The notes beneath the pieces are model-generated. The model was not told the DNA's origin, made no database searches, and saw nothing but the letters and a program-made list of their open reading frames with translations. From positions 1,768-65,767 of the forward strand of contig CAJBMM010000005.1 of the NCBI GenBank assembly GCA_903954185.1: 64,000 bases of DNA, in the 5' to 3' direction. Shown here in pieces: positions 19,249-19,325 of this stretch; the first letter of the stretch is position 1; each line of letters opens with the position of its first letter. Made by a program: the position numbers and the translations under genes. This DNA comes from an uncultured Candidatus Berkelbacteria bacterium. Lineage in GTDB: Bacteria; Patescibacteriota; UBA1384; CAJBMM01.

Positions 19249-19325
19249 CGTCATTCCTGCGTAGGTCATTCGGTTGCACAAGAGACCCTAAACCTGTCGA
19301 ACGGGCAGGAATCTATATAATAAAT
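19249..19325. repeat. dispersed palindromic repeat family A (reverse-orientation, long form: gtcattcctgcgtaggtcRttcgRttgcac...agaccctRaRcctgtcgaaMgggcaggaatctat)
   Basis: Paralogous copies 29667..29745 and 59288..59435. Partial units near 10395..10425, 22840..22865, 27755..27785 and 49258..49285. Confidence 0.75.

Follow-up and report, generated by a model that had tools for sequence, protein, structure and literature searches.

Palindromic repeats of an uncultured Patescibacteria-like genome probably belong to the Ssn-related class of oriented DNA hairpins

An uncultured, Patescibacteria-like bacterium carries a family of short palindromic repeats (family A), which we analysed in a 64 kb stretch of its genome (contig CAJBMM010000005.1, positions 1,768 to 65,767; hereafter the window), where a copy at 19249-19325 had been flagged. 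The repeat family is genuine and statistically solid and its core is a member of an already described kind of hairpin: judged on its sequence, it probably belongs to the NTS/SRM class of oriented DNA hairpins, as an extension of the Neisseria dRS3 palindrome, and its copies would be sites for an Ssn-type nuclease. The dRS3 palindrome lies within NTS, an oriented hairpin of 28 nt (CGTCATTCCCGCGMAVGCGGGAATCYRG) (PMC11893778), which has been widened to 'Ssn-related motifs' (SRM) (Chenal et al. 2025, Nat Commun 16:2388, PMC11893778). SsnA is a 94-aa single-domain GIY-YIG protein which binds the hairpin only as single-stranded DNA (ssDNA), not in its RNA form, and cuts a few bases 5′ of it; cutting depends most on the three bases 5′ of the palindrome and binding on the C just 3′, the ssnA gene typically has its own hairpins on its flanks, and ssDNA-nuclease activity at such sites has been demonstrated for four homologues (PMC11893778). 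In Neisseria, the SsnA-NTS pair limits integration of motif-bearing transforming DNA (PMC11893778). The genome searches of that study covered NCBI RefSeq reference/representative genomes, and its main text mentions neither Patescibacteria nor 'Candidate Phyla' (PMC11893778).

The core unit of family A reads YGTC-ATTCCTGC-GNAR-GCAGGAAT-C-YA, an 8-bp stem with a G-N-A-R tetraloop between oriented flanks; GTCATTCCTGCGAAGGCAGGAATC is a variant of this hairpin, and the hairpins are also written GTCATTCCTGC. Window copies are identical to the NTS consensus at 25 of 28 positions, and two of the three differences make up one compensatory pair (C10:G19 to T10:A19). The two share an 8-bp stem, a G-N-A-R loop, an oriented GTC head, a trailing C-Y-R and over-representation, whereas the window stem has T:A where Neisseria has C:G and, in the source lineage, the core gains a 12-nt 3′ extension, TACATAATAAAT. 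This extension, as YACATAATAAAT, is common to about 8 of 15 copies, and either T or C stands before GTC as a variable 5′ flank. We collected 188 perfect hairpins across all retrieved loci, and where the search had left the base free they reproduce the NTS consensus: 181 have C or T at base -4 (before GTC), 182 have a G-N-A-R loop, and the 3′ flank reads C-Y-A-G/T. A covariance model of the core, the check proposed by an earlier sequence-only reading of the window, was built from non-window copies only and recovers eight window copies in the correct orientation. Their GTCATT strands score 23-47 bits, whereas these palindromes read from the other strand stay at or below 14 bits, and the orientation-defining flanks are therefore conserved. 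Stem variants are compensatory, with CCTGC/GCAGG, CCCGT/ACGGG and ATCCTCGA/TCGAGGAT in the window and ATCCCTGC/GCAGGGAT beyond its edge (L123), and two copies have mutated heads (GTT at 59289, TGC at 22731). Window cores fold as ssDNA, the inverted doublet 24183/24232 at -32.8 kcal/mol (z -12).

The GNRA-like tetraloop on the GTCATT strand, kept in nearly all of the 188 copies, could also point to RNA-level elements such as stabilisers, terminators or small RNAs, and many copies do lie in 5′ or 3′ untranslated positions. G-N-A loops stabilise DNA hairpins too. A mainly RNA-level role is very improbable, since copies are both sense and antisense to neighbouring genes, no T-tract follows the hairpins and no Rfam family matches them: in the window, Rfam returned nothing but tRNAs at the gathering threshold and nothing but chance-level matches in E-value mode. 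The binding preference of SsnA for ssDNA over RNA (PMC11893778) argues the same way. Intrinsic terminators were considered separately, and none of the hairpins qualifies or was called terminator-like.

Enrichment was measured with a purpose-written scan for GTC, a perfect AT-starting stem, a loop, the complementary stem and C, with dinucleotide-preserving shuffles as the control. Stems of at least 5 bp give 19 sites against 2.3 in shuffles (largest 7), ca. 8-fold, and stems of at least 7 bp give 9 sites against 0.23, ca. 40-fold. With up to two mismatches, ATTCCTGC-N4-GCAGGAAT has five matches in the window (0.03 expected), and TGAGCYTGTCGAA, the conserved loop of a further module that we call M4, has ten (2.05 expected), five of them exact. 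The sequence-only reading had described a palindromic, modular family present in both orientations, which is what we find, almost wholly in intergenic DNA; each of its eleven listed sites carries at least one module, and further copies that it had left out lie at 12787, 20899, 27652 and 10013-10075. It overstated the spread as 'most intergenic regions', since on a rough gene map a module is present in ca. 10 of 27 gaps longer than 80 nt, and its site 12826 is not intergenic but within a transketolase open reading frame (ORF). Other samples, assembled independently (L001, L123), show these copies as well, which rules out the assembly artefact that it had named as a refutation, and more copies follow within 10 kb past the left edge of the window (L123 15821, 18276 and 22864).

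Nor is the motif confined to the window, the other refutation it had named. A scan of one genome per prokaryotic species (596 Gb) with the pattern GATTCCTGC-N4-GCAGGAATGAC (20 specified bases) located the exact hairpin in at least 119 stretches, with over 20 phyla represented and an estimated chance expectation of ca. 1. Matches include Bacteroidota, Nitrospirota, Chloroflexota, Ignavibacteria, Planctomycetota, Desulfobacterota and Omnitrophota, together with Alpha- and Gammaproteobacteria (Rickettsia and Tisiphia among them), several groups of the Candidate Phyla Radiation (CPR) and one Nanoarchaeota metagenome-assembled genome (MAG). Such a range excludes a lineage-specific miniature inverted-repeat transposable element (MITE). 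In IMG/VR, the exact hairpin was seen in 33 stretches of viral-classified contigs (L263-L295), and one viral-classified contig of 45 kb (3300036760_001528) has at least eight copies. A 20-mer particular to the source lineage matched nothing in a metagenomic contig collection (metagenome_contigs).

The link to a nuclease comes from three loci in three phyla, where the same hairpin directly flanks Ssn-like GIY-YIG genes:

L085, Pirellulales MAG: hairpin 8 nt before the ATG and again 8 nt after the stop, inverted, around a 100-aa GIY-YIG gene
L094, Ignavibacteria MAG: hairpin on both sides of a GIY-YIG gene
L043, Flavobacteriaceae GF1: hairpin 2 nt after the stop of a GIY-YIG gene

Directly downstream of the Ssn-like gene in the last of these (Flavobacteriaceae bacterium GF1, AP035880.1, L043 6600-8000) stand five tandem units of ~300 bp, and each unit inspected consists of the last ~45 nt of the gene plus the hairpin. 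Two other small GIY-YIG genes have different surroundings: one (L006 6560-7010) is flanked on both sides by a different hairpin repeat, CCCTATAGATTCnTTCnGAATCTAnACAnAGGGA, and one (L157 980-1500) lies just upstream of a tRNA-Ser(GGA), with a duplicate of the tRNA 5′ half on its other side.

The GIY-YIG genes flanked by the window's hairpin bear on whether the window copies are REP/REPIN elements mobilised by a RAYT, an IS200/IS605-like Y1 transposase. The systems are alike in oriented hairpins with a conserved 5′ head, in inverted doublets (12787/12836, 24183/24232 and 59289/59335), in clustered arrays and in a presumed single-copy enzyme gene with its own hairpins, and in ca. seven copies the stem has GTAG before it on the GATT strand. 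However, that GTAG head is specific to the source lineage, the sequence matches NTS and is unrelated to any REP known to us, no Y1 transposase was found among the scanned window ORFs or the Pfam matches of called genes on overlapping contigs, and in other phyla the partner flanked by this hairpin is a GIY-YIG nuclease, not a Y1 HUH transposase. We therefore consider a RAYT origin highly unlikely.

Several observations weigh against assigning the core to the NTS/SRM class with an Ssn-type partner. No GIY-YIG or ssnA-like ORF was found in the window or ~10 kb past its left edge by motif regular expressions, tblastn or HMM, so a cognate nuclease is unproven and function in the source organism is inferred. 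The flanking GIY-YIG proteins, compared with PDB and NCBIfam, obtained no label beyond GIY-YIG. Hairpin orientation has no consistent relation to the neighbouring genes. Lastly, the published degenerate SRM pattern, HGTCWYN(0-2)YYVSBRHN(0-5)WNVSBRGN(0-2)RNCYNB, matches the window only at 20896-20923; it misses the window variant because the T of ATTCCTGC (third stem position) falls on V, and this poor fit is a limit of a hand-made search string, not of the biology. The lack of a GIY-YIG gene in ~74 kb would also suit orphan hairpins, SRM-type by descent but without a cognate enzyme, persisting as neutral or weakly structural DNA. Degenerate copies (16724, 22731, 27652 and 59289) point the same way, and no ssnA is detectable in 19% of genomes with >200 SRMs (PMC11893778). 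Against this, six copies keep a perfect 8-bp stem with oriented flanks, and the gain of copies postdates divergence from a relative with a 64% identical transketolase, which speaks for a recent active process; we regard orphan status as rather unlikely, though less so than any other alternative weighed here.

Evidence for that gain comes from the transketolase ORF (11831-13867), whose two halves both align to human-type transketolase and whose inter-domain linker is lengthened by additional residues. The copies at 12787 and 12836 encode a 26-aa in-frame insert there (the region translates as ..APEILSSSTSLFEDPKTNNYVDSCFRRNDGQ..), and precisely these 26 linker residues are missing from homologues with 78% and 64% identity. 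A syntenic 14.8-kb contig of the 64% relative (L127) keeps the gene order and has none of the hairpins, and its intergenic gap between the 958-aa and Nramp genes measures 150 nt, compared with 555 nt in the window. On this comparison of sequences, the copies are lineage-specific gains which behave as inserted DNA. The 'mobile family' of the sequence-only reading thus stands as far as behaviour is concerned, and falls as a family restricted to one lineage. Its likening to Rickettsia palindromic elements (RPEs) also finds support, as in both cases a housekeeping protein tolerates a palindromic in-frame insert, here specific to the lineage; an RPE is one element of 100-150 bp whereas the window insert is two hairpins of ~25 nt, and the likeness drawn here is one of behaviour. 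Rickettsia and Tisiphia loci do carry the same hairpins as the window (L041, L054, L065 and L074). The best named homologues of the transketolase are from Patescibacteria and Microgenomates (43-49% identity), and the source is therefore probably a CPR member.

The edges of the copies may bear on how they insert. No target-site duplications are visible at copy boundaries in the window and no terminal inverted repeats match a transposase element, so these are not MITEs in the usual sense, contrary to the MITE-like elements of the sequence-only reading. The 5′ boundary of the unit coincides with the reported Ssn cut position, which would fit nuclease-linked spread without proving it. A MITE descended from the IS30-family element in the window, or from a different DDE transposon, would account for the 9-mer TGTAGATTC, which we take to be the start of the IS30 left end. 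The left-end 39-mer that begins with it is present in 3541 E. coli genomes, and in the single match inspected, which is interrupted, a truncated helix-turn-helix ORF follows ~24 nt downstream. However, the local IS30-family element (21277-22359, with a 351-aa transposase at 21312-22367), inserted amid the repeat arrays, is bounded by 18-nt inverted repeats, GAAGTGCAACAARAGCTC (21277-21294 and 22342-22359), unrelated to TGTAGATTC; on this ground an IS30-derived MITE was rejected, in agreement with the earlier view that the relationship is weak. The shared 9-mer is also partly a lineage-specific flank, as TGTAG is the 3′ flank here and mostly C-C-A-G in other phyla, and we regard the match as a coincidence. 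With the boundaries lacking both marks of a transposon, descent from a DDE element is the least credible of the origins considered.

The copies in the window comprise simple and long-form SRM hairpins, and arrays in which they alternate with M4 and with a third hairpin module, h2:

19250..19325, + strand: the flagged copy, a long-form SRM hairpin of GTC, ATTCCTGC, 44-nt loop, GCAGGAAT, C and 3′ extension TATATAATAAAT
29669..29743, + strand: long-form SRM hairpin, sister of the 19250 copy (z -2.45; repeat family D19)
59335..59431, - strand: long-form SRM hairpin with a 35-nt hairpin nested in its loop, in an inverted pair with the 59289 copy
59289..59324, + strand: simple SRM hairpin with a GTTATT head and 3′ extension TACATAATAAAT (34.3 bits, E 4e-7)
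24183..24206, + strand: simple SRM hairpin TGTCATTCCTGCGAAGGCAGGAATCCAG (47.5 bits; 25/28 NTS positions)
24220..24255, - strand: simple SRM hairpin with 3′ extension, inverted relative to 24183 in a REPIN-like doublet (45.2 bits)
12787..12815, + strand: SRM variant GTC-ATCCTCGA-9 nt-TCGAGGAT-C in the transketolase ORF (23.2 bits, E 5e-4)
12836..12859, - strand: simple SRM hairpin in the transketolase ORF, translated ..DSCFRRNDG.. (45.4 bits)
16724..16747, - strand: degenerate SRM hairpin, then (CCTACAA)n heptamers at 16763-16787 (24.7 bits)
20604..20639, - strand: SRM hairpin with 3′ extension, head of the array 20604-20790 (37.3 bits)
20670..20758, - strand: h2 hairpin GTCATTGC-GAG..CGAA-GCAATC, two and a half copies (family D11)
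20899..20922, - strand: SRM hairpin, CCCGT variant (47.3 bits)
22731..22865, - strand: array of a degenerate SRM hairpin (nested GGAACGC-TTA-GCGTTCC), h2 (22787-22812) and TTCCACAA plus M4 (22825-22865)
27652..27785, - strand: array of a degenerate SRM hairpin, h2 with a loop insertion (27687-27732) and TTCCACAA plus M4 (27745-27785)
10385..10430, + strand: TTCCACAA, heptamers and an M4 hairpin (GTG-GT-GAGCCTGTCGAA-CAC) upstream of the Nramp gene (family D9)
49245..49285, + strand: TTCCATAA plus M4 (TAGT-GAGCTTGTCGAA-ACTA), adjoining (TTAGTCA)x10
10013..10075, - strand: 63-nt composite, GTC-ATCTC ... GAGAT-C around two CGCTTAGCG-type hairpins

The flagged stretch reads GCGTCATTCCTGC, the 44-nt loop, GCAGGAATC and then TATATAATAAAT; its loop holds a degenerate M4 unit, TAAACCTGTCGAA (of the GAGCCTGTCGAA type), and it folds no better than shuffled sequence (z -0.33). 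Its sister (29669-29731 against 19249-19325) is ~90% identical over a 40-nt stretch and has a nested TTCGA/TCGAA stem and CTCAG-ACC-CTGAG around GAGCCTGTCGAA, and M4 units are nested in the loops of all three long-form hairpins (19250, 29669 and 59335). Modules follow one order (SRM hairpin, h2, TTCCACAA, M4) in the collinear arrays at 22731 and 27652, with M4 reading on the + strand in both, and the array at 20604 keeps this order with h2 duplicated and M4 absent. A second copy of the 63-nt composite lies beyond the window (L123 22864). At 57602-57629, an rsmH-like ORF contains one half of a degenerate SRM hairpin, the 3′ side (TTGTCTTCGCCAGAATGAAAG), and lacks the 5′ counterpart; this may be a remnant or a chance match.

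Such mosaics recall the dRS3/NIME arrays of Neisseria, in which short ATTCC..GGAAT palindromes likewise alternate with other modules in intergenic DNA. The 20899 copy is the only one in the window to fit both the published SRM pattern and dRS3 (ATTCCC-N8-GGGAAT exactly), whereas the other copies read ATTCCT..AGGAAT; the intervening modules are here themselves hairpins (h2 and M4), and no phage integrase or IS110-type gene lies nearby. Where the sequence-only reading had taken the modules for pieces of one element, their co-occurrence is upheld and their unity is not, as they form distinct hairpin families.

The h2 module (GTCATTGC-GAG...CGAA-GCAATC) keeps the GTCAT..ATC frame and recurs in Rickettsiales, SAR202, Nitrospirae and Planctomycetes loci, with 19 matches in 868 kb where <1 is expected. 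M4 is described here as a short, variable stem that carries a conserved loop, and strong covariation is not claimed, since complementarity beyond CC/GG is moderate (at least 4 of 5 positions paired in 30 of 142 copies, ca. 9 in the control). A related pattern, CCTGAGCYTGTCGAAGG, occurs in at least 120 metagenomic stretches, and beside M4 in this set are small GIY-YIG genes of a different clade (~1e-10 against our own Ssn HMM), for example with M4 22 nt after the stop (L151) or inverted on both sides of the gene (L137). Four homologues of the L151 protein (68-80% identical), chosen blind to the DNA, all have M4 or an M4-like unit within ~100 nt on the 3′ side, and one of them has M4 on the 5′ side as well. 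At L151, L248, L255 and L259, GIY-YIG plus M4 cassettes lie at host-gene 3′ ends (a wecB-like epimerase, rfbA), and past the cassette the final ~20 codons of the host gene recur in diverged form, a layout that looks like a homing-type insertion restoring the gene end. Literature searches for the h2 and M4 sequences gave unrelated primer matches only and no description of either motif.

From these pairings we tentatively draw a wider reading, which may well prove wrong: the modules could be cognate hairpins of different small GIY-YIG clades, together a general GIY-YIG-plus-hairpin element class like RAYT/REPIN, whose non-autonomous hairpins would co-invade, nest, build arrays and enter coding sequence, with the GAGCYTGTCGAA-loop M4 as a second class whose UPF0213/T5orf172-like clade inserts as gene-plus-hairpin cassettes. 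Two points on these modules also weigh against the Ssn-type assignment of the core: h2 was never directly beside a nuclease gene in the loci examined, and the M4 homologues partly share one insertion site and are not fully independent, leaving about four independent contexts.

Other repeats fill much of the intergenic DNA. The 'ctacaacc' module of the sequence-only reading is one of ~35 period-7 tandem repeats scattered through it, which we treat as a phenomenon apart from the hairpins; examples, including (TTAGTCA)x10.4 and (CTACAAC)x4, lie at 49164-49236, 12911-12940, 16763-16787, 19341-19372 and 22867-22896, and one such array is inside the transketolase linker. Reportedly, Elhai described in 2008 SDR and heptamer STRR repeats in heterocystous cyanobacteria, and by description the likeness extends to tiny hairpins nested in other repeats and to abundant intergenic 7-nt tandem repeats. 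This idea was dropped, as the organism is not a cyanobacterium: HIP1 sites are absent from the window (~39% G+C) and its proteins are Patescibacteria-like. A separate hairpin family (GAACAGACTTTAGTCTGGC and CCAAGCTAAAGCTTGT units), without the GTCAT frame, forms arrays of its own (10200-10372, 23984-24101, 26400-26565 and 28598-28701), and small CGCTTAGCG/CGCTAAGCG-core hairpins lie at 10030-10070, 22745-22765 and 29790-29812, one of them nested in the 22731 SRM loop. Two 35-nt arms at 22542-22634 (AGGGTTGTTCCCTCGTCTGACGAGGGTGCAACCCT) are 89% mutually complementary and each is itself a hairpin, and a 21-nt tandem repeat (3.5 copies) occupies 18888-18976 in a doubtful ORF (18496-19203) beside the tRNA cluster. 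The genes of the window include a type IV pilus, PBP1A, a dcw cluster, RadA, RecJ, several tRNAs and one IS30-family transposase.

Returning to the core as an SRM-type site, we infer that a cognate Ssn nuclease in the source organism acts on the copies as ssDNA and that the hairpin spread through that enzyme. The site would fold when DNA becomes single-stranded (in replication, repair or transformation), and a single-domain GIY-YIG Ssn nuclease of ~95 aa would bind the hairpin and cut a few bases 5′ of it. In this Patescibacteria-like lineage the hairpins would have multiplied in intergenic DNA alongside other cosmopolitan hairpin families, SRM, h2 and M4 forming NIME-like mosaics and nesting in each other's loops, with one in-frame entry into a gene. 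Because the hairpins flank the gene in an inverted layout in other phyla, the dispersed copies may stand to a GIY-YIG gene cassette as REPINs stand to RAYTs, as its non-autonomous relatives.

What sets the window apart from the described NTS/SRM systems is its Patescibacteria-like host, the pair of hairpins in frame within a gene and the absence of any nuclease gene seen within ~74 kb. The finding would place the Ssn/SRM system in an uncultured genome from a group thought to depend on DNA uptake, and the same window encodes the type IV pilus genes, RadA and RecJ. Since a very common stem variant escapes the published pattern, SRM totals reported so far may be too low. The window also provides comparative evidence that hairpins are gained by insertion, even into coding sequence. 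Alongside the CPR host and the in-frame insertion, further interest comes from M4 and its GIY-YIG genes, a second hairpin/nuclease pairing which could widen the set of site-specific ssDNA nucleases usable as tools.

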